This document shows, one piece after another, positions 5,084 to 56,775 of a stretch of 64,000 nt of DNA. The notes below the pieces were generated by a model. The model saw only the letters and a list, made by a program, of their open reading frames with translations. It was not told the origin of the DNA and did not search any database. The stretch comes from Octopus vulgaris (taxonomy: Eukaryota). The DNA lies in NCBI GenBank assembly GCA_951406725.2, contig OX597814.1:118730001-118794000 (forward strand), written 5' to 3'. Made by a program: the position numbers and the translations under genes. How positions within the stretch are numbered: the first letter of the stretch is position 1; every line of letters starts with the position of its first letter.

Positions 5084-5105
5084 TAATAATAATAATAATA
5101 ATAAT

Positions 5106-5490
5106 AATAGAAATCAGCAAAATGTGGAACCTGAAGACTAAAACAATACCTGTTATCATAGGTGCCCTGGGAATGATAGCAAAAGGGGCTGATTGCTACC
5201 TAATTCAGATACCAGGAAACCCCAAAATCGCAGAAATTCAAAAGCTAGTGCTCATGGGAACTGCTCATATCGTACGCAAATTAATTTCTATGTAATCACA
5301 AGTTTTAAGACAAACATAATTTACGTATGGTTTTTTAGGCATTCACTAGTACAACACTAAGTACAAAAACAAATATATGGCACCTTAGGCATAACACCAA
5401 CATAAACTTCCAACTTGTTGCTTCTTGAGGTCTCTGGGTGAGACTTGGAGCCAACTTGTGCAAATAGAAAGCAAAAATCAAACATAGAAT
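5106..5490 (+). mobile_element. R4/Dong-type retrotransposon, family C, short 3' fragment
   Basis: EISKMWNLKTKTIPVIIGALGMIAKGADCYL... and a 3' UTR matching the reverse complement of 35985-36320; followed by (AAT)n. Confidence 0.85.
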
Positions 5491-7827: not shown

Positions 7828-10012
7828 ATATATATATATATATATAGTGTTGTTGTTCATATAAAAACTTCACCTAACTTGATTTAATGAGTCGAATCGC
7901 TGTTATATGAATAGAAAATGTATGCTCTTAGTTTTTAGTTTTTCTTTTTTCTTTTTGTTCCGGAAAATTACTTTTGCTCAGGCAATAAAAAGGCAGACGT
8001 AATCATAGTATTGTGTCCATCCAAACTTCAGTGCTCACATTAAACACTTCAGCAGTTGACCTTTACCACAACATCACCTCCTGGAAATTATTCCATCCTA
8101 TATTTTTCCTGCAGCCGTCAAATCGAAGCAATTCAAGAGGAACATTACAAACATCTATCTCACAACCATTTCCTCTAAACCAAAACACGAGAATAATTGA
8201 TAAGAAATGTGTAATTTTATCACAAAATTTTCTAATTTACTATATGAGTATAATATTTATTAAATTGCTTGCTAAATGTAATAATTTACTTTTCGAATCT
8301 CATTTACTTCTGGTCATTCTTCAGGCTGTAAAAGAAGCACGTCTGCAATGACAAAAAATAAATTATTAAGCAAGTAATTATATAATTGTTTCACATATTT
8401 GCTAAAAAAAAATCAATAAAAAGAAAATTTGGTTGAATTATTTTGTTAGTTACTTTAATAAGATGATTTTGTTTTTAATTAATCAACTTCCAATAATTTA
8501 ACGGAATTAAAATTATGTTTTTAACATTGCAATTTCTCTAATTATTGTTCGATATCTTTTAATGACTTCATTATTTAAATTTTGCAATAATTAATACCTC
8601 ACCAACTGACTGTAGTGTCATTAAGATTTATATATTTTCTATAATGATAACTGACTTTGGCACGAAATCACAGATAAATAAGTGAGAAGTATGATATATC
8701 CAATCACTCCGATCCAAGAATGTTATTAGTTATGCTGTTGTTTTCTTTAATATAGTTTAAATCCGTATTAAAATAAGTTGACAAGAGATATAATCAAAGA
8801 CGTAATTTTATATTTTAAGCAAAGGAATTATTCACGAACAGTACCCAATATCAACTTTATATACGTTATCTGCAAGAAATGTGTCTACTATCTCTAGTAT
8901 ATCGAATGACCCCACTGAAAACTACATCTTTATGATAGCAGGATAAAAAGACGAAATTTGTTACTGAGATTAGAAGACAAAGTAGAAATATTACAGTTTA
9001 ATAATGAACAGTTAAGTTTCCATGATCATTAAGTCTCTTTTACAAAAAAACACTATTTCTACAAAAGGATGTAGATTGAACTTGAAATTATGCTAAGACA
9101 ATAAAGTAATTTTGCATGTACATGCATGTTTAACTGTGCAGATGTGTGAGATTCTGCTACTGAGAACTGTATTCGGGTTTATGCCAGATTCATAAAATAA
9201 CAGATGGTATCTAACATTGTGTTCGAAGATGAGGAGTAAATTGCTTCTTTTTTGCAACACAGGAGACGCACAACCCCTCTCCCTCTCTCTTTCTCTATCT
9301 CTCTATCTCTCTCTCTCTCTCTCACACACATACACAAATACACACACAGAAACATTCACACACTCAGACACTCTCAGAGAAACCAACACAAACACAACAG
9401 TCTCTCATCAATAGATAGAGGTTGATAGGTTATTATGTATTTTATAAGAGTAATGGTTATATTTGGTAATAACTGGTCAACATTGATTTCTTCCCCTCCA
9501 CGTCGTAAATGAGTAACGCCTGATAGTTAAGCGATATGTTATTCCATTGGTATTCATGTTCCTTACGCCAAAATCGTTAGACGTTCAGACGTAAGGAAGC
9601 TGAATGGCAATGGTCTAATACGCCTAGAAATTTAAAATGAATATGGTCTTTATATTCCAGGCACTTACTTTATGCACAAAGCTGATCACACAACACAGAT
9701 GCACCCAGAGTCTAAAGCTCTTTCTCTATTATGGTATCATTCATAAGCGTGGTATTAGTGATAATTGTAATATAAGCTCCATTCATCGGTCATAATGTTA
9801 GATAGAGCACTGTGTGGTGCGAGCAAATTTCCGGATGGTAACTGGAGTGAAAGAGATAAGAGGGGCAACTGAGGATCTTCGGCACCTGAATGTCCGTAAA
9901 ATATATGATCCTAAAATGAGGACATATTATTTGCAGGAAGTTTGGAAACCAGACATTTCAATATACTGCTCAAGTATGGGAATATACTACAGCAAACCAT
10001 AGGGACTGGCGT

Positions 10013-10251
10013 ACTCTTTACTCTTTTTTACTTGTTTCATTCATTTGATTGTAACCATACTGGAGCACCGCCTATAGTCGAGCAAATGGACCACCGGACT
10101 ATTTCTTTGTAAGCCTAGTATTTATTCTAACGGTCTCTCTTGCCGAACCACTAAGTGATGTGGACGTAAACACACAAGCGTCGGTTGTCAAGCGATGTTG
10201 GGGGGACAAACACAGACACAAACATATACATACACAAGTATATATACACAA

Positions 10252-10295
<44 letters not shown>

Positions 10296-10455
10296 GAAGA
10301 GCTTCTTTCAGTTTCCGTCTACCAAATCCATTTACAAGGCTTTGGTTGGCCGTGGCTATAGTAGAAGACACTTGCGGAAGGTGCCACGCAGTGGGACTGA
10401 ACCCAGAACCCTTTGGTCGGTAAGCAAGCGTCTTACCATACAGCCACTCTTGCAC
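10013..10455 (-). mobile_element. tRNA-derived SINE with internal (TA)/(TG) microsatellite (octopus-type family)
   Basis: Homologous to 24982-25412 and 25768-26177; A/B-box head, GGCGGTGCTCCAGCATGG-like body, (AAAGAGT) tail. Confidence 0.85.
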
Positions 10456-12332
10456 CCATTAATGAGAAAGGAAACAGTGGAAAACCAAAGAGATATACCA
10501 GTGCAAAAATTTCAGGCATGCGCAGGAAGGAGGGTGGTCATCTTTGTTTTTGAAAAGAATAATGTGTGTGATTTTGGTACTCCTGGACAAGTTACCTTTA
10601 AATATGATTTGTAAAAGCGAGGAACATGAATATAGACGGAAAATGATGGCCATGGTCGTTCCTCTTGTTCATATATTTCTCCTAATCATCATTGCTGACA
10701 CCCACGAGGAGGTTATAAATTATTACTATCCATTAATACAAGTATGGGCGTTTCCCTGTACAGGCTTGTGACGCACAACGTCATTCTCGATACGAGGCAC
10801 GTGACCATGGTTTAGGTTTATCCCGGAAATAACCACAAACAGACGATCTAACAAACTATGTTTGAGGAATTGAAATGCAATTATCTCACCAGGCAGGAGT
10901 ATTATGAGGAAGCTCGCTTGAGGAAATTGACCCTGAACGGCATGGAGGATATAAAAATTAATAATAAGATAGTAATATTAATAAATAGAAATAGAAGACG
11001 AAATGCGCATTTACAAATATATATATACTTTGAAATATAATTGGCTAGACAATGTAGAGAACATTGAAATTAGAAATTGTATAGATGAGAATTTATTAAC
11101 GAATTATATTAATATTCGATATAATGATGAAAACCAAAATATAGCAATATACATCAATATGCTAGCGGGTTTCATAATAATTTCTAGTTATAATATGCTC
11201 CAGTGGAAGCCCTTCATATCCGCTATAAAAGTAATATGGAAAAATCTCCTGTATGTATAATATTGATTTGAAGATCGTCGCAAAATTGAAATTATCTCGT
11301 GCAATTTTTTATAGCCCTTATCACTTAGAAGTGTTAATATTACTGTAGTAAAAAGAAATTAGCCCTATTTATTTCAGTTGCTCAAATTTAATTTGGATTA
11401 TATAGAAAATGTATTTCGAAGTTGACATGGACTTTAAAATCCAACTGAAGAAAATTATGAATATATTTCTCATGTATTTGTTCTTCTCAGTGAAGTGTAT
11501 TCTTTCAGCCAGAATAAGTATCATTAATATGTGTGTATATGTTTGCGTGCGTATGTGTATGTTCGCAAATACATTGTGAGTGTATTTTTGAGAGAGAGAT
11601 TGGTGAGAGAAAGAGAAAAGAAAGTGACAAGAAGAAAATGAGAGAGAAAGAGGGGGACAGCGAATGCACTAGTATTAATCATTAATGTGAATACATAGAG
11701 AAAGTTATACAAGTTCAAGCAAGAAAGTAAATATTTATTTACGTATACAAGTATATAAATATATGTCTGTTTGTGTGTGTGTATAACACAGACACACACA
11801 CATACATATATATACACTTACAAGGAACCAGTCAGATTACGTAAATTTAGATGATCGGTGTTTTATAACAGATTACGTAGGGAGAACTGAACTTAATCTT
11901 CACAACAAACAGCTGATCTCAATGGCATATCATAAATTATATACTAACTATATACACAGGGAGATAAGAGCATGCTACAAGGGGAAAATGTACAAACTAT
12001 AAAACTGTAGGGCTGCAACATCTATACATTAATGCATAATAATAGACTAACAAAATAACCACAACATACTGAAGTGGAGAAACAGGTATTTCTGTATTGA
12101 AGTTTGTGTGTAAGGCGGAAATAACATAGTATGTATGGCTTATACTACGACTATTCTACATTTCCAGAAATCAATGACGGTGAGTTGGAAGAGAATTACA
12201 ATGACCGTGGCAATCCATGCCTAACAATGGCACACGCTTACCCAGTAGGGGCATTAACTCCAATTTGTTTTAAGAAATATTATTTGCAAAGCAAGGCAGA
12301 TACAATAATTAATAATTATAAAGTAATAAATA

Positions 12333-12615
12333 TAGTCTGTTGTGTCTGGGCAGAGTCATTTTCTTTTTGTGCCTTATAAGGTAACACACTCACCGGTAAA
12401 ACTTCAACTTATGTCTTATTTTTATTTATTAAAATTTTTAAGAAATAAGTTGGAATTATAATGCCTTATAATGTAACACACTCACCGGTAAAATTTCCAC
12501 TTATTTCTTTTTTTTATTTTCCTAAAATTTTCAAGAAATAAGTGGAAATTTTACCGTTCAGTGTGTTACATTATAAGGCACAAAAAGAAAATCACTCTCT
12601 CCAGACACAACAGAA
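12333..12615. repeat. Direct plus inverted repeat structure (fold-back)
   Basis: TGCCTTATAAnGTAACACACTCACCGGTAAAA occurs twice (12370, 12462), then in reverse complement at 12533-12615; another copy of one arm lies at 44358-44401. Confidence 0.75.
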
Positions 12616-13419
12616 TATGCTTCAACACACTTGCAAACCAAATCCAACAGCGAAATGTAATAAATATAAAAAAAATAAATGACTCCTACTAGAAAATCCT
12701 AAGAACTTTATGCAAAATAAAGAGGATCCTAAATACAAAATATATGGAGATTGCGAATAAACAATGAATCATTGTTTAGCGGTACTACAGCGATATCTGT
12801 GTACAGACATTATGCTCCCACAAATTGTAAAGTGCAGTAGTATTATTAAAATAGTTCAGTACAAAAGTACATAGAGCATTGTATTAGAAATCAACAATGA
12901 TATTATTCATTGGAATACGGTATTTTAAGAAACGACGCTTAAATATCATTGTTGCTATTTATCACTGCGAAAGAACAGTGACTCCTAAAGGATGAAGGAA
13001 ATCCATGAGACAATATGTCTGAAAAGAAAATGGAAAACTATATGCAAATATCACAAGCCTGAAATTGAGATAGCCAGACAGTTTGAACTGAATAAAAGAA
13101 CTTCTACGGAAATTGTATTGTTAACGATGAAAATAAAATGCAACAAAAAATTACTAACACAAATACATATTAAAATATGACCGCGAGGTACTTCTCATTT
13201 ATTACGTCGAGTAATGTAAGCAAATACATATGTAGACAAATACAACAAAACAAATGATTTATCCAGTAAATATAACAATACAATATTGTGTGTGTATGTG
13301 TTTGTCCGTGCGAGTGCGTGTGTATCTATCTGTGTCTGAAAGTGTGTCCATGTGTGTGTAGGCGCCCGTGCACGCGTTCTTAAAATGAAATGTTTCATAT
13401 ATAATTTGTATTGAATCCA

Positions 13420-13980
13420 AACGTTAGGACGCTGGCGAAATGCTTAGTGGCATTTCGTCTGTCGTTATGTTCTGAGTTCAAATTCCGCCGAGGTCGACTT
13501 TGCCTTTCAACCTTTCGGGGTCGATTATATAAGTACCAGTTACGCACTGGAGTCGATATAATCGACTTAATTCGTTTGTCCGTCCTTGTTCGTCCGCTCT
13601 GTGTTTAGCCCCTTGTCGGTAGTAAAGAATTAGGTATTTCGTCTGACGCTACGTTCTGAGTTCAAATTCCGACGAGGTCGAATTGCCTTTCATCCTTTCG
13701 GGGTCGATTAAATAAATACCAGTTACACACTGGGGTCGATATAATCGACTTAATCTGTTTCTCCGTCCTTGTTCGTCCCCTCTGTGTTTAGCCGCTTGTG
13801 GGTAGTAAAGAAATAGGTATTTCGTCTGTCTTTACGTTCTAAGTTCAAATTCCGCCGAGGTCCACTTTGCCTTTCATTCTTTCGGTGTCGATAAATTAAG
13901 TACCAGTCGCGTACTGAGGTCGATCTAATCCAATTAATCCCCTCCCCAAAATGTCGGGTCTTGTGCCTAGAGTAGAAAAT
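13420..13980 (+). mobile_element. Three tandem units of a tRNA-derived SINE (GAGTTCAAATTCCGCCGAGGTCGAC family)
   Basis: Three ~180-bp repeats with B box GAGTTCAAATTCC; the first two end ...CTCTGTGTTTAGCCnCTTGTnGGTAGTAAAG. Confidence 0.85.
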
Positions 13981-14039
13981 TATTTGTATTGAATCCTGTA
14001 TTTATCTCTTGTGGTGAATGAACAGACATTTATATAAGT

Positions 14040-14081
14040 ACTAGCATTAAAGACCCGTCGTTGCCGGGTCATAGTGCTAGT
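14040..14081. mobile_element. Helitron-like 3' terminus (GC hairpin plus CTAG), palindromic
   Basis: ACTAGCATTAAAGACCCGTCGTTGCCGGGTCATAGTGCTAGT: GACCCG/CGGGTC stem with CTAG about 10 nt away on both sides. Confidence 0.5.
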
Positions 14082-14200
14082 GCATGTATATGTGTGTATA
14101 TATATATGTGTAAATATTACATGTACATCTACATATATACATCTACACATAAAATACAAAATACAAATTTATATCTTGATATCGCTAGTGATAACAATAC

Positions 14201-14528
14201 TCAAAATATATAACAGACTGGAATTGTTAGCCCGTCTCTTGTAATTTCGATCAATTGTATCTTGTCCTCACTCTTGTATAGAAGTGTGGCTACAATCCAG
14301 CCTACCTCAATTTCTGGGGGGGGGGGGGGTTTAAATATTTTTCCGGTACGTCCTACGTCCCAGATATAAAGGTAAGAATAAGATATTTCCACTTTGCAAG
14401 TTCGAGTCGTGTACTCCCTTGCACGCTCCGTTGACTCGAACCTTGTTTCTATTGGGGCGAATTTACCGCCTCTGATTAGATACCTTTCATAGTCGCACCA
14501 AGACACTTTTCGAAGGTGCTTTCCTCCA
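14201..14528 (-). pseudogene. Decayed ORF1/gag homologue, 3' half (the target locus interrupted by the array)
   Basis: Translates MEESTFEKCLGATM, then after a frameshift YLIRGGKFAPIETRF...PPEIEVGWIVATLL; this aligns with array protein EIAEIEKCLGDIM...YVSRGKKFGTVEVRC...PPEVKTEWLATAIL. Confidence 0.75.
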
Positions 14529-14772
14529 TGTGATTTTATTATTACCCACAAGGGGCGAACATAGAGGGGACAATACAATCGGGGAACTTAAAATAAGAAA
14601 GCGAATGACAAGAAAAGGAAAAAATAAAAGTAAAAAATGACATATGAAAGAATATTTACAATGAGATGTAAATGCCCACTCGATCCCCGGAATCGAGAGG
14701 TTACATTTTCGTCACATATATTTCACAATATTTTCTTTTTTTCTCTTCTTTCTTCTCTCTCTTCTCACAGTT

Positions 14773-15957
14773 CTATACATATTCCATGATAGTTTTCAAT
14801 TCTCTAAAGTCTATCACTGAGCCCTCAGGCAGCCGCTCTCTCACTCGAACACTCGTGTAAAATGTTACACTCTCACCGGCAGCTCTGAGGAACTCAGCGA
14901 CTCTTTCTTCGGGGATTAGAGCAGTCTCCTGCCACTGATCGGTCATCCTGTCGACCCACACATGTCCCTCCGTATTACTTGTCAAATCCTTCATTTCAGG
15001 GCAGAAATGGAAGGTTACTAACTTGTAGAAGCAGTAATCTTGTTTCCGTCCTACGTTTTCCTTCATTTTTCTTTTCGGGCTTATTTCTTCCTTGTTCTCC
15101 TCTCTTTGTTTCTCTCTTTCTCTCTTTTTGCCTTCTTTTCTTTCTCCTTCCTTCTCTTGTCTTTTTGGTTCTTTGTCTGTTCTCTCTTTCTCTCGTGTTT
15201 TATGTTCCTTTTCTTTTTCTTTTTGTGTGCCGTCTTTTCTTTTCGTTTGATTCTGATCTCTCTCTTGTTTTTTTCCTGTTGTTTCTTTTTCCTTTTTTTT
15301 TTCCTGACTCTGTTTTGGTTCTATTTCTTTCTTTTCTTTTATTTCTTTTTCCTTCATTGACTTATTATTTCCTTTCTCTTGTTGTTTTGTTTCCTTTTCT
15401 ATGTTTTCTTTTTCATTTACCGTATTCTTCTTTTCTTCGAGTTCCTGCTCGCACTCCGCTACGAATTCGTATAACGGGCACTCTTTTTTAATGTGCCCCC
15501 TTGTCCCGCACAAGTAGCAGTTTGGCTTTCTTCCCTCTACAATTACACTGAGGGTTTTCTCATCTTCAATTTCTATTCTGTAGGGGAACCTTTCAATGTC
15601 CTCTTTTGTGGCCATCAAACACAGTTCTACCCCATATCCTCTCCAGTTTATCGCGTTGGACTCCTTAAAGGATTCCACCTCCACTTCCTCTTCTGCTGCT
15701 CCTAGAATAGCTGTTGCCAGCCATTCTGTTTTTACTTCTGGGGGTATATTCGGGATTTTAACCCGGACCCCTCTTCTTCCCTTGTATGAGGGCCACATTA
15801 TAAATGTTTCCGCTCTTAGTACAGTGGTAGCCAGTGAGGCTGCAATTTCTTCCGTTGCACATCTCACCTCCACCGTACCAAATTTCTTGCCTCTACTCAC
15901 GTAGGTCGATTTCCCCATTATGTCTCCCAGACATTTTTCGATTTCTGCTATCTCCAC
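14773..15957 (-). CDS. ORF1/gag-like nucleic-acid-binding protein, unit 1 (394 aa from GTG; likely true start is the ATG at 16178, one frame off)
   Basis: CX2CX4HX4C knuckle CYLCGTRGHIKKEC preceded by VIVEGRKPN and an RRM-like region (VRVKIPNIPPEV), then a long K/E-rich tract; L1/Tx1-type ORF1 architecture. Confidence 0.8.
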   Translation of the reverse strand: MEIAEIEKCLGDIMGKSTYVSRGKKFGTVEVRCATEEIAASLATTVLRAETFIMWPSYKGRRGVRVKIPNIPPEVKTEWLATAILGAAEEEVEVESFKESNAINWRGYGVELCLMATKEDIERFPYRIEIEDEKTLSVIVEGRKPNCYLCGTRGHIKKECPLYEFVAECEQELEEKKNTVNEKENIEKETKQQEKGNNKSMKEKEIKEKKEIEPKQSQEKKKEKETTGKKQERDQNQTKRKDGTQKEKEKEHKTREKERTDKEPKRQEKEGERKEGKKREREKQREENKEEISPKRKMKENVGRKQDYCFYKLVTFHFCPEMKDLTSNTEGHVWVDRMTDQWQETALIPEERVAEFLRAAGESVTFYTSVRVRERLPEGSVIDFRELKTIMEYV

Positions 15958-16558
15958 TCTTGCCAGTTTCTTTGTATTTTTGTCTTGTGTTCTATATGTT
16001 ACAGTCTTGTTTTCTTTGTCCTCTTTTGCTTTCGCGGGGGGATTAGCTTCACGCTATCACCCTCCCTTTTTAATAGCTTTTCATATTCTTTGAGTTTACT
16101 CTTCTCAAAGAAAACATCCTTCACGATTATCGACGAATCATTATTTTTCTTTCCCGTGACCCCCGCGTAAGTCGCCATGACTAGAGGGTCAATTCACCTT
16201 CTTCGGAAGGTTTCCACACGTGGAGGCAAACGCCTCGCGCGATAATAATCAATTTACACAACAAAATTTCACTGTCTAGTCACAGATAACAACACACGTG
16301 GGTAAATTTCCTCGCTGTGATTTTATTATTACCCACAAGGGGCGAACATAGAGGGGACAATACAATCGGGGAACTTAAAATAAGAAAGCGAATGACAAGA
16401 AAAGGAAAAAATAAAAGTAAAAAATGACATATGAAAGAATATTTACAATGAGATGTAAATGCCCACTCGATCCCCGGAATCGAGAGGTTACATTTTCGTC
16501 ACATATATTTCACAATATTTTCTTTTTTCTCTTCTTTCTTCTCTCTCTTCTCACAGTT

Positions 16559-17742
16559 CTATACATATTCCATGATAGTTTTCAATTCTCTAAAGTCTAT
16601 CACTGAGCCCTCAGGCAGCCGCTCTCTCACTCGAACACTCGTGTAAAATGTTACACTCTCACCGGCAGCTCTGAGGAACTCAGCGACTCTTTCTTCGGGG
16701 ATTAGAGCAGTCTCCTGCCACTGATCGGTCATCCTGTTGACCCACACATGTCCCTCCGTATTACTTGTCAAGTCCTTCATTTCAGGGCAGAAATGGAAGG
16801 TTACTAACTTGTAGAAGCAGTAATCTTGTTTCCGTCCTACGTTTTCCTTCATTTTTCTTTTCGGGCTTATTTCTTCCTTGTTCTCCTCTCTTTGTTTCTC
16901 TCTTTCTCTCTTTTTGCCTTCTTTTCTTTCTCCTTCCTTCTCTTGTCTTTTTGGTTCTTTGTCTGTTCTCTCTTTCTCTCGTGTTTTATGTTCCTTTTCT
17001 TTTTCTTTTTGTGTGCCGTCTTTTCTTTTCGTTTGATTCTGATCTCTCTCTTGTTTTTTTCCTGTTGTTTCTTTTTCCTTTTTTTTTCCTGACTCTGTTT
17101 TGGTTCTATTTCTTTCTTTTCTTTTATTTCTTTTTCCTTCATTGACTTATTATTTCCTTTCTCTTGTTGTTTTGTTTCCTTTTCTATGTTTTCTTTTTCA
17201 TTTACCGTATTCTTCTTTTCTTCGAGTTCCTGCTCGCACTCCGCTACGAATTCGTATAACGGGCACTCTTTTTTAATGTGCCCCCTTGTCCCGCACAAGT
17301 AGCAGTTTGGCTTTCTTCCCTCTACAATTACACTGAGGGTTTTCTCATCTTCAATTTCTATTCTGTAGGGGAACCTTTCAATGTCCTCTTTTGTGGCCAT
17401 CAAACACAGTTCTACCCCATATCCTCTCCAGTTTATCGCGTTGGACTCCTTAAAGGATTCCACCTCCACTTCCTCTTCTGCTGCTCCTAGAATAGCTGTT
17501 GCCAGCCATTCTGTTTTTACTTCTGGGGGTATATTCGGGATTTTAACCCGGACCCCTCTTCTTCCCTTGTATGAGGGCCACATTATAAATGTTTCCGCTC
17601 TTAGTACAGTGGTAGCCAGTGAGGCTGCAATTTCTTCCGTTGCACATCTCACCTCCACCGTACCAAATTTCTTGCCTCTACTCACGTAGGTCGATTTCCC
17701 CATTATGTCTCCCAGACATTTTTCGATTTCTGCTATCTCCAC
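16559..17742 (-). pseudogene. ORF1/gag-like, unit 2, frameshifted in an A-run
   Basis: ORFs 16867-17742 and 16559-16852 together reproduce the unit 1 protein. Confidence 0.75.
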
Positions 17743-18344
17743 TCTTGCCAGTTTCTTTGTATTTTTGTCTTGTGTTCTATATGTTACAGTCTTGTTTTCT
17801 TTGTCCTCTTTTGCTTTCGCGGGGGGATTAGCTTCACGCTATCACCCTCCCTTTTGAATAGCTTTTCATATTCTTTGAGTTTACTCTTCTCAAAGAAAAC
17901 ATCCTTCACGATTATCGACGAATCATTATTTTTCTTTCCCGTGACCCCCGCGTAAGTCGCCATGACTAGAGGGTCAATTCACCTTCTTCGGAAGGTTTCC
18001 ACACGTGGAGGCAAACGCCTCGCGCGATAATAATCAATTTACACAACAAAATTTCACTGTCTAGTCACAGATAACAACACACGTGGGTAAATTTCCTCGC
18101 TGTGATTTTATTATTACCCACAAGGGGCGAACATAGAGGGGACAATACAATCGGGGAACTTAAAATAAGAAAGCGAATGACAAGAAAAGGAAAAAATAAA
18201 AGTAAAAAATGACATATGAAAGAATATTTACAATGAGATGTAAATGCCCACTCGATCCCCGGAATCGAGAGGTTACATTTTCGTCACATATATTTCACAA
18301 TTTTTTTCTTTTTCTCTTCTTTCTTCTCTCTCTTCTCACAATTC

Positions 18345-19520
18345 TACACATATTCCATGATAGTTTTCAATTCTCTAAAGTCAATCACTGAGCCCTCAGG
18401 CAGCCGCTCTTTCACTCGAACACCGTGTAAAATGTTACACTCTCACCGGCAGCTCTGAGGAACTCAGCGACTCTTTCTTCGGGGATTCAGAGCAGTCTCC
18501 TGCCACTGATCAGTCATCCTGTTGACCCACACATGTCCCTCCATACTACATGTCAATTCCTTCATTTCAGGGCAGAAATGGAAGGTTACTAACTTGTAGT
18601 AATCTTGTTTCCGTCCTACGTTTTCTCTCTTTTTCTTTTCGGGCTTATTTCTTCCTTGTTCTCCTCTCTTTGTTTCTCTCTTTCTCTCTTTTTGCCTTCT
18701 TTTCTTTCTCCTTCCTTCTCTTGTCTTTTTGGTTCTTTGTCTGTTCTCTCTTTCTCTCGTGTTTTATGTTCCTTTTCTTTTTCTTTTTGTGTGCCGTCTT
18801 TTCTTTTCGTTTGATTCTGATCTCTCTCTTGTTTTTTTCCTGTTGTTTCTTTTTCCTTTTTCTTTTCCTGACTCTGTTTTGGTTCTATTTCTTTCTTTTC
18901 TTTTATTTCTTTTTCCTTCGTTGACTTATTATTTCCTTTCTCTTGTTGTTTTGTTTCCTTTTCTATGTTTTCTTTTTCATTTACCGTATTCTTCTTTTCT
19001 TCGAGTTCCTGCTCGCACTCCGCTATGAATTCATATAACGGGCACTCTTTTTTAATGTGCCCCCTTGTCCCGCACAAGTAGCAGTTTGGCTTTCTTCCTC
19101 TACAATTACACTGAGGGTTTTCTCATCTTCGATTTCTATTCTATAGGGGAACCTTTCAATGTCCTCTTTTGTGGCCATCAAACACAGTTCTACCCCATAT
19201 CCTCTCCAATTTACTGCGTTGGACTCCTTAAAGGATTCCACCTCCACTTCCTCTTCTGCTGCTCCTAGAATAGCTGTTGCCAGCCATTCTGTTTTTACTT
19301 CTGGGGGTATATTCGGGATTTTAACCCGGACCCCTCTTCTTCCCTTGTATGAGGGCCACATTATAAATGTTTCCGCTCTTAGAACAGTGGTAGCCAGTGA
19401 GGCTGCAATTTCTTCCGTTGCACATCTCACCTCCACCGTACCAAATTTTTTTCCTCTACTCACGTAGGTCGATTTATCCATTATGTCTCCCAGACATTTT
19501 TCGATCTCTGCTATCTCCAC
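18345..19520 (-). pseudogene. ORF1/gag-like, unit 3, several frameshifts
   Basis: ORFs 19023-19520 and 18616-19077 plus a broken C-terminus. Confidence 0.75.
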
Positions 19521-20125
19521 TCTTGCCAGTTTCTTTGTACTTTTGTCCTTGGGTTCTATATGTTACAGTTTTGTTTTCTTTGTCCTCTTTTGCTTTCGCG
19601 GGGGGATTAGCTTCACGCTATCACCCTCCCTTTTGAATAGCTTTTCATATTCTTTGATTTTACTTTTCTCAAAGAAAACATCCTTCACGATTATTCGACG
19701 AATCATTATTTTTCTTTCCCGTGACCCCCGCGTAAGTCGCCATGACTAGAGGGTCAATTCACCTTCTTCGGAAGGTTTCCAAACGTGGAGGCAAACGCCT
19801 CGCGCGATATTAATCACTTTACACAACAAAATTTCAACTGTCTAATCACAGATAACAACACACGTGGGTAAATTTCCTCGCTGTGATTTTATTACTACCC
19901 ACAAGGGGCGAACATAGAGGGGACAATACAATCGGGGAACTTAAAATAAGAAAGCGAAATGACAAGAAGGGAAAAAATAAAAATAAAAATGACAAATGAA
20001 AGAATATTTACAATGAGATGCAAATGCCCACTCGATCCCCGGAATCGAGAGGTTACATTTTCGTCACATATAGTTCACAATTTTTTTTCTTTTTTCTCTT
20101 CTTTCTTCTCTCTCCTCTCACAATC

Positions 20126-21303
20126 TCACACGTATTCCATAATACTTTTCAAGTCTCTAAAGTCAATCACTGAGCCCTCAGGCAGCCGCTCTTTCACTCG
20201 AACACCCGTGTAAAAAATTACACTCTCTCCAGCTGCTCTGAGGAACTCAGCGACTCTTTCTTCGGGGATCAGAGCAGTCTCCTGCCACTGATCAGTCATC
20301 CTGTTGACCCACACATGTCCCTCCATACTACATGTCAATTCCTTCATTTCGGGGCTGAAATGGAAGGTTATTAACTTGTAGTAATCTTGCTTCCGTCCTA
20401 CGTTTTCTCTCGTTTTTCTTTTCGGGCTTATTTCTTCCTTGTTCTCCTCTCTTTGTTTCTCTCTTTCTCTCTTTTTGCCTTCTTTTCTTTCTTCTTCCTT
20501 CTCTTGTCTTTTTGGTTCTTTGTCTGTTCTCTCTTTCTCTCGTGTTTTATGTTCCTTTTCTTTTTCTTTTGTGTGCCGTCTTTTCTTTTCGTTTGGTTCT
20601 GTTCTCTCTCTTGTTTTTTTCCTGTTATTTCTTTTTCCTTTTTCTTTTCCTGACTCTGTTTTGGTTCTATTTCTTTCTTTTCTTTTATTTCTTTTTCCTT
20701 CGTTGACTTATTATTTCCTTTCTCTTGTTGTTTTGTCTCCTTTTCTATGTTTTCTTTTTCATTTACCGTATTCTTCTTTTCTTCAGTTTCCTTCTCATAC
20801 TCCGCCATGAATTCATATAACGGGCACTCTTTTTTAATGTGCCCCCTTGTCCCGCACAAGTAGCAGTTTGGCTTTCTTCCCTCTACAATTACACTGAGGG
20901 TTTTCTCGTCTTCGATTTCTATTCTATAGGGGAACCTTTCAATGTCCTCTTTTGTGGCCATCAAACACAGTTCTACCCCATATCCTCTCCAATTTACTGC
21001 GTTGGACTCCTTAAAGGATTCCACCTCCACTTCCTCTTCTGTTGCTCCTAGAATAGCTGTTGCCAGCCATTCTGTTTTTACTTCTGGGGGTATATTCGGG
21101 ATTTTAACCCGGACCCCTCTTCTTCCCTTGTATGAGGGCCACATTATAAATGATTCCGCTCTTAGAACAGTGGTAGCCAGTGAGGCTGCAATTTCTTCCG
21201 TTGCACATCTCACCTCCACCGTACCAAATTTTTTTCCTCTACTCACGTAGGTCGATTTATCCATTATGTCTCCCAGACATTTTTCGATCTCTGCTATCTC
21301 CAC
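20126..21303 (-). pseudogene. ORF1/gag-like, unit 4, frameshifted in an A-run
   Basis: ORFs 20428-21303 and 20126-20347 match the unit 5 protein. Confidence 0.75.
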
Positions 21304-21907
21304 TCTTGCCAGTTTCTTTGTACTTTTATCCTGGGTTCTATACGTTACAGTTTTGTTTTCCTTGTCCTCCTTTGCTTTCGCGGGGGGATTAGCTTCACGC
21401 TATCACCCTCCCTTTTGAATAGCTTTTCATATTCTTTGATTTTACTTTTCTCAAAGAAAACATCCTTCACGATTATTGCCGAATCATTATTATTCTTTCC
21501 CGTGACCCCCGCGTAAGTCGCCATGACTAGAGGGTCAATTCACCTTCTTCTGAAGGTTTCCAAACGTGGAGGCAAACGCCTCGCGCGATATTAATCACTT
21601 TACACAACAAAATTTCAATGTCTAATCACAGATAACAACACACGTGGGTAAATTTCCTCGCTGTGATTTTATTACTACCCACAAGGGGCGAACATAGAGG
21701 GGACAATACAATCGGGGAACTTAAAATAAGAAAGCGAAATGACAAGAAGGGAAAAAATAAAAATAAAAATGACAAATGAAAGAATATTTACAATGAGATG
21801 CAAATGCCCACTCGATCCCCGGAATCGAGAGGTTACATTTTCGTCACATATAGTTCACAATTTTTTTTTTCTTTTTTCTCTTCTTTCTTCTCTCTCCTCT
21901 CACAATC

Positions 21908-23086
21908 TCACACGTATTCCATAATACTTTTCAAGTCTCTAAAGTCAATCACTGAGCCCTCAGGCAGCCGCTCTTTCACTCGAACACCCGTGTAAAAAAT
22001 TACACTCTCTCCAGCTGCTCTGAGGAACTCAGCGACTCTTTCTTCGGGGATCAGAGCAGTCTCCTGCCACTGATCAGTCATCCTGTTGACCCACACATGT
22101 CCCTCCATACTACATGTCAATTCCTTCATTTCGGGGCTGAAATGGAAGGTTATTAACTTGTAGTAATCTTGCTTCCGTCCCACGTTTTCTCTCGTTTTTC
22201 TTTTCGGGCTTATTTCTTCCTTGTTCTCCTCTCTTTGTTTCTCTCTTTCTCTCTTTTTGCCTTCTTTTCTTTCTTCTTCCTTCTCTTGTCTTTTTGGTTC
22301 TTTGTCTGTTCTCTCTTTCTCTCGTGTTTTATGTTCCTTTTCTTTTTCTTTTTGTGTGCCGTCTTTTCTTTTCGTTTGGTTCTGTTCTCTCTCTTGTTTT
22401 TTTCCTGTTATTTCTTTTTCCTTTTTCTTTTCCTGACTCTGTTTTGGTTCTATTTCTTTCTTTTCTTTTATTTCTTTTTCCTTCGTTGACTTATTATTTC
22501 CTTTCTCTTGTTGTTTTGTCTCCTTTTCTATGTTTTCTTTTTCATTTACCGTATTCTTCTTTTCTTCAGTTTCCTTCTCATACTCCGCCATGAATTCATA
22601 TAACGGGCACTCTTTTTTAATGTGCCCCCTTGTCCCGCACAAGTAGCAGTTTGGCTTTCTTCCCTCTACAATTACACTGAGGGTTTTCTCGTCTTCGATT
22701 TCTATTCTATAGGGGAACCTTTCAATGTCCTCTTTTGTGGCCATCAAACACAGTTCTACCCCATACCCTCTCCAATTTACTGCGTTGGACTCCTTAAAGG
22801 ATTCCACCTCCACTTCCTCTTCTGCTGCTCCTAGAATAGCTGTTGCCAGCCATTCTGTTTTTACTTCTGGGGGTATATTCGGGATTTTAACCCGGACCCC
22901 TCTTCTTCCCTTGTATGAGGGCCACATTATAAATGATTCCGCTCTTAGAACAGTGGTAGCCAGTGAGGCTGCAATTTCTTCCGTTGCACATCTCACCTCC
23001 ACCGTACCAAATTTTTTTCCTCTACTCACGTAGGTCGATTTATCCATTATGTCTCCCAGACATTTTTCGATCTCTGCTATCTCCAC
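21908..23086 (-). CDS. ORF1/gag-like nucleic-acid-binding protein, unit 5 (392 aa from GTG)
   Basis: Uninterrupted ORF with the same CCHC knuckle; variant of the unit 1 protein. Confidence 0.8.
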   Translation of the reverse strand: MEIAEIEKCLGDIMDKSTYVSRGKKFGTVEVRCATEEIAASLATTVLRAESFIMWPSYKGRRGVRVKIPNIPPEVKTEWLATAILGAAEEEVEVESFKESNAVNWRGYGVELCLMATKEDIERFPYRIEIEDEKTLSVIVEGRKPNCYLCGTRGHIKKECPLYEFMAEYEKETEEKKNTVNEKENIEKETKQQEKGNNKSTKEKEIKEKKEIEPKQSQEKKKEKEITGKKQEREQNQTKRKDGTQKEKEKEHKTREKERTDKEPKRQEKEEERKEGKKREREKQREENKEEISPKRKTRENVGRKQDYYKLITFHFSPEMKELTCSMEGHVWVNRMTDQWQETALIPEERVAEFLRAAGESVIFYTGVRVKERLPEGSVIDFRDLKSIMEYV

Positions 23087-23448
23087 TCTTGCCAGTTTCT
23101 TTGTACTTTTGTCCTGGGTTCTATACGTTACAGTTTTGTTTTCCTTGTCCTCCTTTGCTTTCGCGGGGGGATTAGCTTCACGCTATCACCCTCCCTTTTG
23201 AATAGCTTTTCATATTCTTTGATTTTACTTTTCTCAAAGAAAACATCCTTCACGATTATCGACGAATCATTATTTTTCTTTCCCGTGACCCCCGCGTAAG
23301 TCGCCATGACTAGAGGGTCAATTCACCTTCTTCTGAAGGTTTCCAAACGTGGAGGCAAACGCCTCGCGCGATATTAATCACTTTACACAACAAAATTTCA
23401 ACTTCTAATCACAGATAACAACACACGTGGGTAAATTTCCTCGCTGTG

Positions 23449-23530
23449 CTCAAATCTTCTTTCTTCTCTACATTGTATACTTTATAGACAATAGTCTTTT
23501 CTTTAATTTTCTTTAATTACTTCCATTTCT
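23449..23530 (-). pseudogene. Decayed ORF1/gag homologue, 5' half (continues across the array into 14528)
   Basis: Minus strand reads IKEKTIVYKSIQCREERRFEH and joins in frame through CACA to MEESTFEKCLG; compare the array's ENKTVTYRTQDKNTKKLARVEIAEIEKCLG. Confidence 0.65.
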
Positions 23531-23769
23531 GCACGCTAATTTTATTTTTAATTTATTCTCATTCATGTGAAAACACTTATTCAAGTTCAAATCATTGATG
23601 CAATTTTATACCAATTGCTATTTTTACTTTTGTTATGTTACTTTAGTTTGATTTTAATTATTACTTACTACATATAATTCAATTGTTATTATTATTTTTC
23701 TTGTTAAAGTGAAAGTATCTGACATAAAATAGAGAAACTTTTTTGTTTCACGTTTAACACGTAATACTG

Positions 23770-23972
23770 AAATAGTGGAGAAGATATGATGTTGCTATGG
23801 TCTCGCTCTAGGCAAGAAGTTGAATAATTCTTTTTTTGCCCATGAAACTACATGGACCCTAAGTAAGGCATGTGTAAAATTTGAATGGAATTGGTTGTGT
23901 AGTTCTCAAGTTTTAGGGAATTGTAGCGGAGAAGATATGATATTGCTGTGGGCTCGCGCTAGGCAAAAATTC
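23770..23972. repeat. Direct repeat (GGAGAAGATATGATnTTGCT...CTAGGCAA twice) with a non-autonomous Helitron-like internal segment
   Basis: Repeats at 23773-23820 and 23923-23970; the intervening AAAATTTGAATGGAATTGGTTGTGTAGTTCTCAAG resembles motifs common in non-autonomous Helitrons (inference). Confidence 0.4.
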
Positions 23973-24769
23973 AAATTATAGAGGTTTTCCATTAATACAA
24001 AACTTTTCATATCAAGTGGCAACATTATAGAGAAGGTAGATATATAGACAAAAATTTGGATTTAAGTTTTAAGAACATTTGAGGTAGTGGAGCCCATCAA
24101 CTGACTGACTAAGATTCAGTTGTTCCAGACTACTGTAAGGTTCTGAGAGGGAAGAACAAATGAAAAGAGACAATAAAGATTTTCTAATTATAGAATTGGG
24201 GTAAAGGGGATGTCAGGGCTCCATATAAGGAATTTATGTAGAAAACAGCATCGTCACAACTAAATGCCAATTACTACTATTTGATGGACAGATTCGGCGT
24301 TAGGGGAACTAGGTCAATGTCAAGTGGTCACAATATCATTCACAGAGAATGCAGAGACATTACAAACCCTATGCACATCATTACAACAGTTGGTCTATAA
24401 GTTCCAAGTTCTTTGACACGTTAGAATAAAGGAAAAAATATAAATCTAAAACGTATTCAATTTGGAGAAAAAGACTATCACTTATTATGAGTAGGCATAG
24501 TACTTATTAACTGGGGGGAAAAGCCTTATTAATCAAGTGAACATATTAGGGGTCAAAATATATATTAAGAAAGATGGAAGAGGGAAAATCAAAGGAGGAA
24601 GATATTCATAGGTTTAGTAGAAGGTGATATTTTATAATATGAAGAGAGATAATTTAGAAGAGTAAATTATTCAAATTTTATGGATAGTGAGTTGATATTA
24701 ACGAATTAAAATATAGGATCTGTTGGAAATAAAATTTACTACCTGCGGATAAAAGTTAATGAGGAAAAA

Positions 24770-25665
24770 ATATCTTAGGTTAATTATATATTAAGAAATG
24801 GGAGTGAGATAATTAAGATGAACCAAATAGTTTCCCTAGGGAAATAGGATTAATACTACTTAGTATTGGAGAACATTATAAAAAAGAATTTAATTCTAAG
24901 TTTGCAATGAAGTTTTTTAATCATCTATGAGTGTTTAACTAAAACCACTATGGTATATTCTTTCCTATTTGGTTAAATATATTTTGTAAAGATATCTTAG
25001 GAGGCGCAGAAGTGGCTGTGTGGTAAGTAGCTTGCTAACCAACCACATGGTTCCAGGTTCAGTCCCACTGCGTGGCATCTTGGGCAAGTGTCTTCTGCTA
25101 TAGCCCCGGGCCGACTAATGCCTTGTGAGTGGATTTGGAAGACGGAAACTGATAGAAGCCTGTCGTATATATGTATATATATGTTTGTGTGTGTGTTTGT
25201 CTGTCTGTGTTTGTTCCCCTAGCATTGCTTGACAACCGAAGCTGGTGTGTTTACGTCCCCGTCACTTAGCGGTTCGGCAAAATATACCGATAGAATAAGT
25301 ACTGGGCTTACAAAGAATAAGTTCCGGGATCGATTTGCTCGACTAAAGGCGGTGCTCCAGCATGGCCGCAGTCAAATGACTGAAACAAGTAAAAGAGTAA
25401 AAGAGTAAGAGAGACTAATTATATATTAAGAAATGGAAGTGAGATAATCAAGGTGAACCGAATAGTTTCTTTAGGGGCATAGGATTCATACTATTTAGTA
25501 CTCCTACTATTTGGGATTCATACTATTTAGGATTCCAACTATTTAGATTCATACAGTTTAATTTTAGAAAAAATAATTCAATTTTAATTTTGCAGTGAAG
25601 TTTTTTAGTCAACTATGAATGTTAAATTGAAAACCAGTATGGTATATTCCTTCTTATTTGATTAT
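24770..25665. repeat. Diverged ~200-bp tandem duplication with a SINE inserted at the start of the second unit
   Basis: TAATTATATATTAAGAAATGG...GGTATATTC at 24781-24960 and 25416-25650; the leader ATCTTAGG|TAATT of unit 2 is split by the SINE. Confidence 0.75.
24982..25412 (+). mobile_element. Full-length tRNA-derived SINE (same family as 10013-10455)
   Basis: GGCGCAGAAGTGGCTGTGTGGTAAG (A box), GGTTCAGTCCC (B box), TTGGGCAAGTGTCTTC, internal TA/TG repeats, (AAAGAGT)n tail. Confidence 0.9.
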
Positions 25666-25767
25666 AAATAATTAAAATTTGAAAAATATAGGAATATTCA
25701 CAAAACTATCATTTAAAGTATTTAAACGTTCGGGTCGTACGATGTATACAAGAACTTCCAGCTCCAA

Positions 25768-25992: not shown

Positions 25993-26023
<31 letters not shown>

Positions 26024-26177: not shown

Positions 26178-26178
26178 G

Positions 26179-41015: not shown

Positions 41016-41779
41016 ATACCTGGTCAGGGATTCTTCTACCTTAGATCTGTTTAATGAATGTTAGTGTTACCTTAAATGTTAAATTCAACAACTGTTAGCA
41101 ATTAGATGCCAAATATATTTTAATTGGTTCTTTATGTAGCTGAAATACGATCGAAGATATTTCAAATACGGTTTTATGTCACTTCTAAAATCTTTCCTTT
41201 ACGTGAACCAGTTCCATTAGCATGCTGTAAGCCATTTCTCTATCAAGCGTGGCCACAAGAGTATTTCTTGCCTTTATTGTTATATGGATATCATGCCTGA
41301 AGGGATTTATATACTTAAAGGTTTTTTGAACCCGGACATTCCAGAAATTCAAGGGTAGATCACGTTACCTCATGCTTCCATGGCTGTGAATTATACACAG
41401 CTCATTACGAATATTCCCATTAATGCATTCTACGTTTACGTTGTTGCTGTTGATTAGAATAATGATCGAATCTGCATTATGGAATCAATACACAGCTAGT
41501 TGTATTTCACTGACATATGCTAGGTGCTTCGGCCAACTACATGGGTGTAAGAACTGCTTTGTGGTAGGTCTTGCTGTTGGTCACGAAAACTAATCCTTAG
41601 CGCATTTGAAAGTATCAGGTGTAGCCTCTAGTAGAGTACATTCATTCGTAAACTTCTGTCTACTAGATTGTGAATCCGTGAAAAAGTAATAGGGTTTGTT
41701 CTTTCTCTTCTGATTAATACATAAATAAATGTCTCTGGCATATTAATAACAAATGATGGTTCAAAGTGTTATATCTGTG

Positions 41780-41995
41780 TCTTTACTACCCACATAGAGG
41801 GGATAAACAAGGACAGACAAAAGGATTAAGTCGATTACATCGATCCCAGTGCGTTACTGGTACTCAATTGGTCGATCCCGAAATGATGAAAGGCAAAGTC
41901 GACCTCGGTGGAATTTGAACTCAGAACGTAACGGCAGAGGAAATACGGCGACGTAGTTCACCCGGCGTGCTAGCGGTTCTGCCAGCTCGCCGTCT
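41780..41995 (-). mobile_element. tRNA-derived SINE (13420 family)
   Basis: TTTACTACCCACA...GTCGACCTCGGTGGAATTTGAACTCAGAACG...TGCCAGCTCGCCG. Confidence 0.85.
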
Positions 41996-42879
41996 TCCAA
42001 AGAGTTATATCCAGTCTATGGATGATGTTTTTGCGAAACTTATTTGATACGTTTTATCATATACACACACACGCCCACACACGCTCGCACGCGCGAACAC
42101 CATTGCCCATATGCGAAAACACATAATTGTAAACACTAAAACGCTAACACACTAAAACAACGGCAAGATTGCGCATATATTTGCACACACTTTCTACTCA
42201 AACGAATTTAAAACAGCCGAGCTAACTCATCAATTATTTATATGCACTATCTTGCAGTCTATATCTGAAAATTTTCTCCGTCTTCTCTAAAATATGTATT
42301 ATACACTCTCTTCTAAATATATATTAATACATCTATATCAAACAGAAATCAACTCTCATTAACATCTGCAACTTCATTACATCCGACTCGGCTTCAATTT
42401 CAATATTTACGATTCACTTCTTTTTACTAACTTATCTATAATCAATAATATAATTTCAGCTACATATTTAATTTTATAAAATTTGAAATTCAAATAAACA
42501 CCAAAGGTTAAATAAGCTTGTTACAATTCAGAATTTGTAAATTAAAGTCACTTATTGAAGCTATAGGGTCGGTAATATAGCTTCAAATTAACACGTAATT
42601 GTGTTTGTTTAATAATTAATGCTGTGCTGTATATTTCGTTACAAATTAGAAACGTGACATATATTTACTTGAAGGTGTAATCTAATGTGTATATAATTAG
42701 AAATATTTAGATTCATTCACTCGGATGTAGTTTTAAAGATATTTAGCTTGTTTTTGTTACATATTCTTAGTCATACGATTATTCTGATCACTAGATTTAT
42801 TTGTTGTCTTGTTTGCTTTACTGACGAAATATATCTAGGAGAAGCTGATCCAAAACATTCATTAATTCAGAGATAACAC

Positions 42880-43720
42880 AATTCCGCAGAGGTCGACTTT
42901 TCATCCTTGGAGCTCGATGAAATAAATGCCTAACAGTTGAGAGCTGATGTCGAAATAATCGACTTGTTTCTACTCAAAATTGCTGGACTTGTGCCCAAAC
43001 TAGAAACAAATAATCCTTTCTACTATAGACACAATGCGTGAAATGTTATGGGAGGAGATGGTCGATTATATCGACCCCAGTGTTTCACCGGTACTTAAGT
43101 TATCGACCCCCGAAATGAGGAAAGGCAAAGTTGACCTCAGCGGAATTTGAACCTAGAACGTAGCGACGTTCAAAATGCCGCTAAGCATTTCGTCCAGCAA
43201 GTTCACGATTCTGCCATCTCGCCACCACTAAAAGGAAATAATTCTTTCTATTATAGTCACAAGGCATGAAATTTGGGGGAGCGGGATAGATGATTATATC
43301 CACCCAAGCATTCAAATAGTACTCATTTTATCGACCCCGAAACGATGAAATGTGAAGTCAACCTCGCCGGAATTTGAACCCAGAACGTAGCGACACTCGA
43401 AATACCTATTTCTTTACTACCCACAAGGAGCTAAACACAGAGAGGACAAGCAACGACAGACAAATGGATCAAGTCGATTATATGGACCCCAGTGCGTACC
43501 TGGTACCTATTTAATCGACCCCGAAAAAATGAAAGGCAAAGTCGACCACGGCGGACGAAATACTGCTACGCATTTCGTCCAGCGAGCTCACGATTCTGCC
43601 AGCTCGCTGCCGCCACTAGAAACAAATGATACTGCCGAGATGGACTTCACCTTTTATCCTTTCGACATTCGAGGGCTATGAAATAAGTACTAATGAAGTA
43701 CTGCGGTGGATGAAATCGAA
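42880..43720 (-). mobile_element. Tandem cluster of SINEs (13420 family), mostly minus strand
   Basis: Three ATCGACCCC...AAAGTnGACC copies at 43015-43615, plus degenerate plus-strand pieces on either side. Confidence 0.8.
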
Positions 43721-55525: not shown

Positions 55526-56404
55526 TACTAGTGTGGAGGCTTAGCAACATTGAATGTTAGACTAAATATCTTGTGGTACTTTGTTACGGCCCTTCATCAC
55601 TTTATCACAATGGTCGACTTTGTATTTCTTCGACTGCAAGCTCTCTGGTTTTTTAACTACATTACAAACTATTCTTAGAATGAATATATTTATCATTTAT
55701 TCGAGAATCTGAAAACGAGAAAATAATAATAATTTATTTGTTCACAAAATAATTAATAAATTGGTCTCAATTATGTACATTATACCGTCTATCACGATTC
55801 TGTTACATCATTATTATGGTAAATTTTGCTTTAACTTTAATACGTTGTAAAATATAAAAGGATATTTGAATAATAATAAAAATTAATAACTGAATTTAGC
55901 AAATTTTATGTGACAAATACGTATTTAATTTTTCAAATTTACCACTATTTACCAAACAGCTACTTATCAGGAAACAATTTCTGCTGCTTTCAAAGAAATT
56001 TATGTACTTATTTATTGGTTTAAAATCTCAAAAGTAGTTATAGCGAAAATTATTTCACTAAATTAATGATTTAATATATGACGTCAGTGTATTCAAAATT
56101 TGTATATATATATATATATGGGTGTGTGTGTGTGTTTGTATGTATGTATGTATGTATGCATGCATGTATGTATGTGTGTATGTGTATGTGTGCATATATT
56201 TGTGTGCATGCGTGTGTGTGCGTGTGTGGGTAGATAGATTGGATATACATGTATATATGATTATGTATAATTAAACGAGAGTAAGGAGAAATGTCATAGG
56301 TTAAGTATGAAGAAGTTGTGCTACATCTGTGAAATGTTGTATGCATTAATTCCAGCACTTATTAATAACTGCATTGTTTCTTTCCAGTTAAACAGATATA
56401 TTTA

Positions 56405-56775
56405 TTACTCTAGGCACGAGGCCCGAAATTTTGGGGGAGGCAGTCAGTCGATTAGATCGATCCCAGTACCCAACTGGTACTTAATTTTTCGACCCCGAAA
56501 TGATGAAAGCAAAAGTCGGCCTCGGCGGAATTTGAGCTCAGAACGTAAAGACAGACGAAATACCTATTTCTTTAACAACCCACAAGAGGCTAAACACAGA
56601 GGGGAGAAACAAGGACAGACAAACGGATTAAGTCTATTACATCGACCCCAGTACGTAAATGGTACTTAATTTATCGACCCCGAAAGGATGAAAGGCAAAG
56701 TCGACCTCGGCGGAATTTGAACTCAGAACGTAGCGGCAGACGAAATACCGCTAAGTATTTCGTCCGGCGTGCTAG
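56405..56775 (-). mobile_element. Two tandem SINE units (13420 family)
   Basis: Reverse-complement match to 13420-13980, including the CCCACAAGAGGCTAAACACAGAGGGG tail. Confidence 0.85.

Follow-up and report, generated by a model that had tools for sequence, protein, structure and literature searches.

What does this locus tell us about how an element that codes for only the first protein of a LINE is copied, and is the short block at its 3' end, which recurs in the tails of neighbouring SINEs, the signal by which it does so? The window, that is, the whole stretch of 64,000 nt analysed here (Octopus vulgaris contig OX597814.1, positions 118,730,001 to 118,794,000 of the forward strand), is AT-rich and microsatellite-rich eukaryotic DNA. 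A sequence-only reading had proposed that the element and an abundant SINE family are both mobilised by one autonomous LINE, forming a three-part system. On balance, and with modest confidence, we favour a narrower version, in which the ORF1-only half-LINE and those SINEs that carry the tail type we call A would use the tail of one two-ORF LINE or those of two sister LINEs of this kind.

The ORF1-only array and its insertion site

Self-comparison by blast resolved five ORF1-only units of 1780-1787 nt (about 1.78 kb), arranged head-to-tail on the minus strand at 14533..23448 (units 1 to 5 at 14533-16319, 16320-18104, 18105-19885, 19886-21665 and 21666-23448). Units 1 and 2 form type A and units 4 and 5 type B (letters independent of those used for SINE tails), with pairwise identities of 99.8% within A, 99.5% within B and 94.5-94.7% between the two. 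By its pattern of variable columns unit 3 (18105-19885) is an A/B mosaic, a patchwork pointing to unequal exchange or gene conversion within the array. All five units, of both types, start with an identical 13 nt. A 5' UTR of 141 nt (23308..23448, minus strand, in unit 5) precedes ORF1, and 240 nt of 3' UTR separate the ORF1 stop from the unit end, where the hexamer AATAAA lies at the extreme 3' end; none of the five unit ends has a poly(A). ORF2 (EN/RT) is absent from the 1.78-kb unit, which has no room for one, and the earlier description of the element as ORF1-only therefore stands: it codes for an RRM-like/CCHC LINE ORF1 and nothing of ORF2. An LTR or TRIM reading of the array was rejected because the array ends share only 13 nt and no long terminal repeat, and a Helitron reading because there is no CTRR end, the terminus by which Helitrons are recognised. 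An Rfam search of 12000-26500 returned only sub-threshold miRNA-like and similar matches, and no ribozyme.

ORF1 of unit 5 occupies 21908..23307 on the minus strand, with its ATG at 23307, and its equivalent in unit 1 lies at 14773-16178 (minus). The predicted protein has an RRM-like region, a single CCHC knuckle (zf-CCHC, E 7.5e-5), a K/E-rich linker and a C-terminal domain, and by this make-up it is a type-I LINE ORF1 (RRM plus CCHC). Look-alikes found by language model and structure were CCHC, RRM and ZCCHC3-type RNA-binding clusters (scores 0.87-0.93), which we treat as leads only, and a PDB sequence search with the ORF1 alignment returned CCHC knuckles and low-complexity matches and nothing else. 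In all five units and both subfamilies the frame is broken near codon 48, at a C run (23131-23322, minus, in unit 5). Beyond the break, units 1 and 5 keep a long open frame of 424-426 aa (424 aa at 21908-23182 in unit 5), which in units 2-4 is broken again. The short frame upstream of the break matches the N-termini of relatives (best E 1.5e-7) and is therefore part of the same ORF1. The break may be a common lesion, a homopolymer assembly error or a programmed -1 shift; a database protein, P0001, likewise begins downstream of it.

The ORF1 family numbers 484 relatives at E<=1e-3 and is cephalopod-rich. All eight close ORF homologues are labelled Octopus vulgaris, and the contigs on which they sit have five different chromosome-scale lengths. 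The family is therefore dispersed, although more than one assembly may be represented among these contigs. Three further database proteins (P0068, P0103 and P0146) appear to join ORF1-family pieces to unrelated host domains (astacin/ShK-like sequence, a coiled coil or LDL-receptor repeats), and are probably gene-prediction fusions. Between unit types A and B, 41 of 65 base changes fall at third codon positions, and the 58 changed codons comprise 32 synonymous and 26 non-synonymous ones. Since the differences are mostly third-position or silent, both types come from lineages with a selected ORF1, and this substitution pattern shows purifying selection on ORF1 in the lineages behind them.

The array interrupts one decayed, distant relative of its own ORF1, the two halves of which are colinear. 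The downstream half (14204..14532, minus) was recovered by hmmsearch (E 1.3e-9) with an ORF1-family profile from which the window's own row had been removed, and by tblastn (29%), while the upstream half (23449..23520, minus) matches family members in blastp (E 5e-5 to 3e-3). Because this relic is present on both sides, the insertion point is fixed independently of the units, and places the block discussed below at their very terminus. A 46-bp direct repeat with 151-bp spacing (23773-23969) lies just upstream of the host relic. Of the 13 nt of host sequence (14520..14532, minus) that directly follow the last unit, 11 equal those of the unit's own 5' start. Such a self-like match has a frequency of about 3.6e-5 per site, and one other such site occurs in 110,120 positions outside the array. 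Since both unit types start with the same 13 nt, the repeat is more likely to be element sequence than a local target-site duplication (TSD), and the signs of a TSD or of target-primed reverse transcription (TPRT) at the array amount, at this one locus, to an 11/13 end repeat whose upstream copy is the unit's own start, with no poly(A). In our view the probable origin of the array is insertion at sites that resemble the 5' start of the unit, with unequal exchange or conversion acting afterwards; insertion of this kind would line up units head-to-tail. A DNA-level crossover within the 13-nt repeat fits this one locus equally well.

The terminal block and its putative stem-loop

Read in sense, each of the five units has as its exact 3' terminus a block of about 42 nt. 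In unit 1 the common terminal block spans 14533..14577 (minus) and consists of a C-rich tract, a hairpin and the AATAAA at its end; in units 2-5 it lies at 16320-16364, 18105-18149, 19886-19930 and 21666-21710 (minus), and an exact 11-mer core is found at 14543, 16330, 18115, 19896 and 21676. The motif had been noticed before at about 14539-14573, once per unit, and its position was right, but it had been quoted from the plus strand, which is antisense, the ORF being on the minus strand. When the last 68 nt of unit 1 were compared by blastn with the SINE copies, matches were obtained at 13775-13814 (82.5% over 40 nt, E 2e-5), 43408-43449 (81%, E 2e-5), and 13592-13625 and 56578-56612 (E 8e-4), giving 81-83% over 34-42 nt at four places; at 41792-41810, where the SINE copy is deleted through the hairpin, the match to the unit end is only partial. 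The unit and the B-box strand of the SINE have the same sense. Against the non-array part of the window the terminal 45 nt reached a best local score of 43, which 0 of 150 dinucleotide shuffles attained (mean 24.9, maximum 32), and when 45-nt windows were slid along the 1783-nt unit and scored against the SINE copies, the terminal windows gave 48 and 44, compared with at most 32 for windows that end before offset 1720. The similarity between unit and SINE is limited to the exact terminus, is in the same sense and goes beyond chance, and the proposal that the element shares its 3' end with a SINE tail was correct, with all its coordinates. A further match, at 53275, with one stem pair and no context, was set aside as chance.

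In the unit and in each of three SINE tail types, A, B and C, a C-rich tract leads into a stem of 4 bp that encloses the loop CUUGU. This putative RT-binding stem-loop lies at 14544..14556 in unit 1 and at 16331-16343, 18116-18128, 19897-19909 and 21677-21689 in units 2-5 (all minus). The outer stem pair is G-U, A-U or U-A according to tail class (U-A in tail C); both middle pairs read C-G in tail A and the unit and G-C in tails B and C, such that the stem of the unit is exactly that of tail A and differs from those of B and C. In an alignment of 16 rows (two units with four A, six B and four C tails; three units identical to those included, the A copy with the deletion and a B copy in advanced decay were left out), 84% of cells were paired and three of the four pairs had changed on both sides. 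The covariation score was 0.662, compared with 0.263 in shuffles (0/500 reached the observed value) and at most 0.306 in slid registers, a signal that stems from three related tail classes, and so from two or three events, in a setting where related sequences can beat such shuffles. Single-strand folding returned the hairpin as the minimum-energy structure in two of five tails, not in unit 5, A43431 or B31038, with z-scores of -1.0 to +0.85, none of them significant, and its stability is not exceptional. A covarying stem-loop had been suggested as a check on the motif; compensatory changes between tail classes are there, but they come from three related classes. We consider the stem-loop likely, though not proven, to be real. 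In stringent LINEs a 3' stem-loop is read by the RT, with the loop carrying specificity, as described for ZfL2 in the relevant part of PMC4176376.

The SINE family and its tails

A profile scan of the window gave 23 SINE hits, 18 strong and 5 weak, and the weak ones (E>0.04) were dropped from all counts. The family has the features of a tRNA-type SINE, namely a B-box-like motif (read by eye), a body, a tail and an interspersed distribution with TSDs; ARAGORN found no intact tRNA in it, and a MetaSINE identity was dropped, as by eye the body is unlike the BivaMeta-SINE1 rows. Tail A is carried by 5 of the 18 monomers, tail B by 7 and tail C, a third and older-looking type (33970, 40757, 42984 and 55511 (+)), by 4, while 2 have no recognisable tail. 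The block had been taken as the tail of an abundant SINE family: it is a genuine tail, of type A, but one that belongs to just these five monomers.

In four of its five copies tail A is internal, in each case within a composite that ends in tail B. The repeats previously described as head-to-tail tandems are present where reported, but they are composites of the forms A-A-B, A-B plus B, and A-B. The first (13420..13980, plus strand) has two internal tail-A hairpins (13608-13620 and 13791-13803, plus), a terminal tail B and a 17/18 TSD; the second (43018..43614, minus) has an internal tail-A hairpin at 43419-43431 and a 17/19 flanking direct repeat; and the third, a dimer (56400..56773, minus), has an internal tail-A hairpin at 56578-56590, a terminal tail B and a 13/14 TSD. 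Direct repeats flank all five SINE insertions examined, and as the composites are flanked as wholes, they therefore transposed with their terminal tail B and not with the internal A. The sole copy in the window that ends in tail A is a lone full-length monomer (41776..41997, minus) with its own 13/14 TSD, and therefore tail A can serve as a 3' end, in a sample of one; a deletion through the hairpin of this copy has removed half of it. Most SINE copies here inserted with tail B or C, and the family as a whole does without the exact tail A. After each internal tail A (13633, 13816, 43406 and 56564) a SINE head follows, starting at nearly one point between the A- and B-box regions. Tail-A modules, too, are thus joined to self-like sequence. 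The target sites of the SINE are AT-rich, unlike the site of the unit.

The window holds several other mobile elements. A second abundant SINE-like family, which we take to be CORE-like, is present at 10012-10456, 25003-25413, 25769-26176, 45588-45714 and 61968-62147, and in two of its copies the same 7-nt loop motif recurs at an internal position, where no more than 2-3 stem pairs form. 5'-truncated pieces of RLE-type (putative R4/Dong-like) LINEs lie in (TAA)n tracts at 1700-2470, 3440-5110, 34130-36503 and 37963-38796; they belong to at least three families, and one keeps a 554-aa open frame at 34335-35999. Mariner-type transposase fragments occur at 37224-37856 (minus; HTH_48, E 4e-8), a short palindrome with perfect arms and CTAG-containing ends, possibly the remnant of a small non-autonomous DNA element, at 14040-14082, and a MITE-like 92-bp tandem duplication with an inverted repeat, related to 44354-44412, at 12370-12580.

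Probable borrowed machinery, and known systems

We propose that the unit is a non-autonomous Octopus retroposon that would correspond to a two-ORF LINE minus ORF2, with the 5' UTR, ORF1 and 3' tail kept. Its last ~42 nt would act as a cis signal to which the ORF2 protein of an autonomous LINE binds, starting target-primed reverse transcription. SINE tail A would be a copy of the tail of the same or a sister LINE, such that unit and SINE borrow that RT, and tails B and C would represent the same hairpin design derived from related LINE families.

The strongest competitor, which we nevertheless regard as unlikely, is that an ORF1 transcript gained the SINE-A tail, by template switching or through the insertion of a 5'-truncated SINE, and is now moved by the LINE of the SINE; the motif would then be functional, but the parent of ORF1 would differ from the donor of the RT. 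The similarity ends abruptly ~42 nt from the unit end, as this reading would have it, and of 46 columns, 9-10 set the unit tail apart from the tail-A majority (some of them owing to a misaligned 5' edge), not far beyond the 1-5 that SINE copies show; template-switch swapping of tails has been proposed for SINEs in passages of PMC4824008. However, given that no SINE body is attached and no TSD lies within the 3' UTR, that the upstream stretch of tail A (~20 nt, from the body to the C-rich tract) is missing from the unit, and that unit types A and B have in common unit-specific tail changes, including the AATAAA, that fit a Pol II LINE end, we do not favour it. The same observations bear on the possibility, foreseen in the sequence-only reading, that the unit merely contains an inserted SINE fragment: the absence of body and TSD speaks against this, whereas the abrupt end of the similarity agrees with it.

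Distinctly less probable is that the block is a SINE fragment at the unit end with no role, the units having been multiplied by satellite-like DNA amplification or by circle integration via the 13-nt microhomology. The recombinant unit 3, the near-identity of neighbouring units, the missing poly(A) tail, an ORF1 frame broken in all five copies and the fact that both array ends fit one crossover inside the 13-nt repeat would all be expected of such an array, yet this explanation needs the end of the fragment to coincide by chance with the end of the unit, while the family is dispersed with its ORF1 under purifying selection, both ends are common to two subfamilies, and the hairpin is intact in 5/5 units and damaged in several decaying SINE copies. 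Least probable of all is common ancestry without common use, whereby the hairpin was inherited from an older LINE and mobilisation of the unit falls to an L1-like RT of the relaxed, poly(A)/AATAAA-dependent kind or to a family other than that of SINE-A, which would account for an AATAAA at the unit end and none in SINE tail A, for three hairpin variants that imply several related partners, for the differing target sites and for SINE copies of seemingly greater age than the units (2-11% from their majority), but not for a unit stem that matches tail A exactly and not B or C, nor for the lack of poly(A) at 5/5 unit ends.

Returning to the reading we favour, the partner LINE itself would lie outside the window: in the 64 kb no ORF2-bearing element has the motif at its end, and the 120 frames of 70 aa or more include no APE/RT frame from a non-RLE clade. 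The sole RT-bearing frames among those 120 belong to the RLE-type pieces, which were rejected as partner since their 3' ends differ. Pfam found RT or APE fused to ORF1 relatives in 0 of 58 proteins, and searches among longer proteins for ORF1-ORF2 read-throughs gave none, which is weak evidence. Scans of GTDB gave 0 matches for the motif and, for ORF1, 165 pattern hits of which 0 were confirmed, as expected for a eukaryotic element, and three matches to the motif in the texts of papers were unrelated and of primer type. TSDs near 15 bp fit L1/Tx1 or RTE better than CR1/L2, and among the LINE groups with recent activity in O. vulgaris it is L1-Tx1 and CR1 that have a full ORF1. Those groups are RTE, Dong-R4, CR1, L1-Tx1, Hero and R2, with 13 recently active families each for L1-Tx1 and CR1 in Table 1 of PMC13282606. 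A type-I ORF1 in a non-mammalian animal is consistent with Tx1, yet the part of PMC5203782 concerned with ORF1 types reports it in CR1/L2 too; it is neither diagnostic of a LINE clade nor exclusive to Tx1. Because of the ORF1 type, the TSD length and the target behaviour taken together, we place Tx1 ahead: the partner would most likely be an L1-Tx1 element and less likely a CR1. The three-part system originally proposed thus retains a terminal, same-sense block, a TSD-flanked tail-A SINE and a covarying stem, but the SINE family as a whole does not depend on tail A.

A fuller scenario, tentative and as a whole rather doubtful, would have a Tx1/L1-clade LINE with stringent stem-loop recognition and one tail serve two parasites, an octopus SINE of high abundance and the half-LINE. 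With a copy of its target at its 5' end, the half-LINE would insert ahead of its own copies and into related elements, and in this way give rise to arrays like those of HeT-A but at non-telomeric sites. Translation of its ORF1 may rely on a conserved -1 frameshift, and the three tail types of the SINE would trace back to a family of sister LINEs that have the loop in common and differ in stems that co-vary.

No description of the octopus element or its tail was found in the open-licence literature; it may already be catalogued in Repbase, Dfam or subscription papers, which fall outside that search. By the figures given in PMC13282606, 11.6% of the O. vulgaris genome consists of SINEs, and 893 of 900 recently active SINE families are unclassified; a search of the open-licence literature found no paper naming a partner LINE for them. 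The 42-nt block and the three hairpin variants provide a direct probe for such a partner. Should it prove to be Tx1, the locus would provide an animal example of stringent tail sharing within L1/Tx1; the L1-clade pairs described in the portion of PMC3747384 that concerns them are from monocots and a green alga. The few ORF1-only LINEs on record would then also include a new host and a new type of ORF1. With a CR1-like partner, or a captured tail, the locus would be a further illustration of principles that are already known.

HeT-A forms head-to-tail arrays, as do the octopus units, although unlike HeT-A these are not telomeric in this window. Non-autonomous LINEs that retain ORF1 are a named class, comprising HAL1 (L1), HeT-A (Jockey) and Ag-Sponge (CR1) in the accounts given in PMC5786205 and PMC5753468. 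Like them, the octopus unit has a 5' UTR, ORF1 and 3' end, no ORF2 and a dispersed family; unlike them, it has an Octopus host, a type-I RRM/CCHC ORF1, a structured non-poly(A) tail common to a SINE, and a parent LINE not found in the window.

Stringent SINE/LINE tail pairs include UnaL2/UnaSINE, ZfL2 and the bivalve CR1-14_CGi with BivaV-SINE2 and BivaCORE-SINE1 (relevant sections of PMC4176376 and PMC4824008), and tail sharing with compensatory stems is established, molluscs included (PMC4824008 and PMC3747384, in the parts on 3' tails). The octopus tails resemble these in their short terminal 3' block and in a likely stem-loop with a conserved loop and compensatory stem changes. In contrast, the LINE side is represented in octopus by a non-autonomous element instead of the RT donor, the stem has no more than 4 bp, one SINE family has three tails, and tail A is often internal.

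In crocodilians SINEU is tied to Tx1-Mar by target preference, and for SINEU-1 the passages of PMC4494074 on this family report no LINE with the same 3' end; the same passages describe tandem SINEU-3 insertions that sandwich a TSD, a published parallel to the octopus array. Like Tx1 LINEs and SINEU/Tx1-Mar, the octopus system combines a type-I-like ORF1 with a location inside another mobile element, tandem copies split by a short target-like repeat, and TSDs of ~15 bp around SINEs. Unlike in SINEU/Tx1-Mar, the tail itself provides the link, and for a unit without RT an assignment to Tx1 is putative. The SINE, with its B-box, conserved body and variable tails, is by description like the tRNA-derived octopus SINEs OK, OR1 and OR2 (as cited in PMC4824008 and PMC3531059). 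ORF1-only LINE derivatives and SINE-LINE tail sharing are each already known separately; what is new is their combination, in which a half-LINE with a type-I ORF1 and a structured tail shared with a SINE forms an array at a self-like site.
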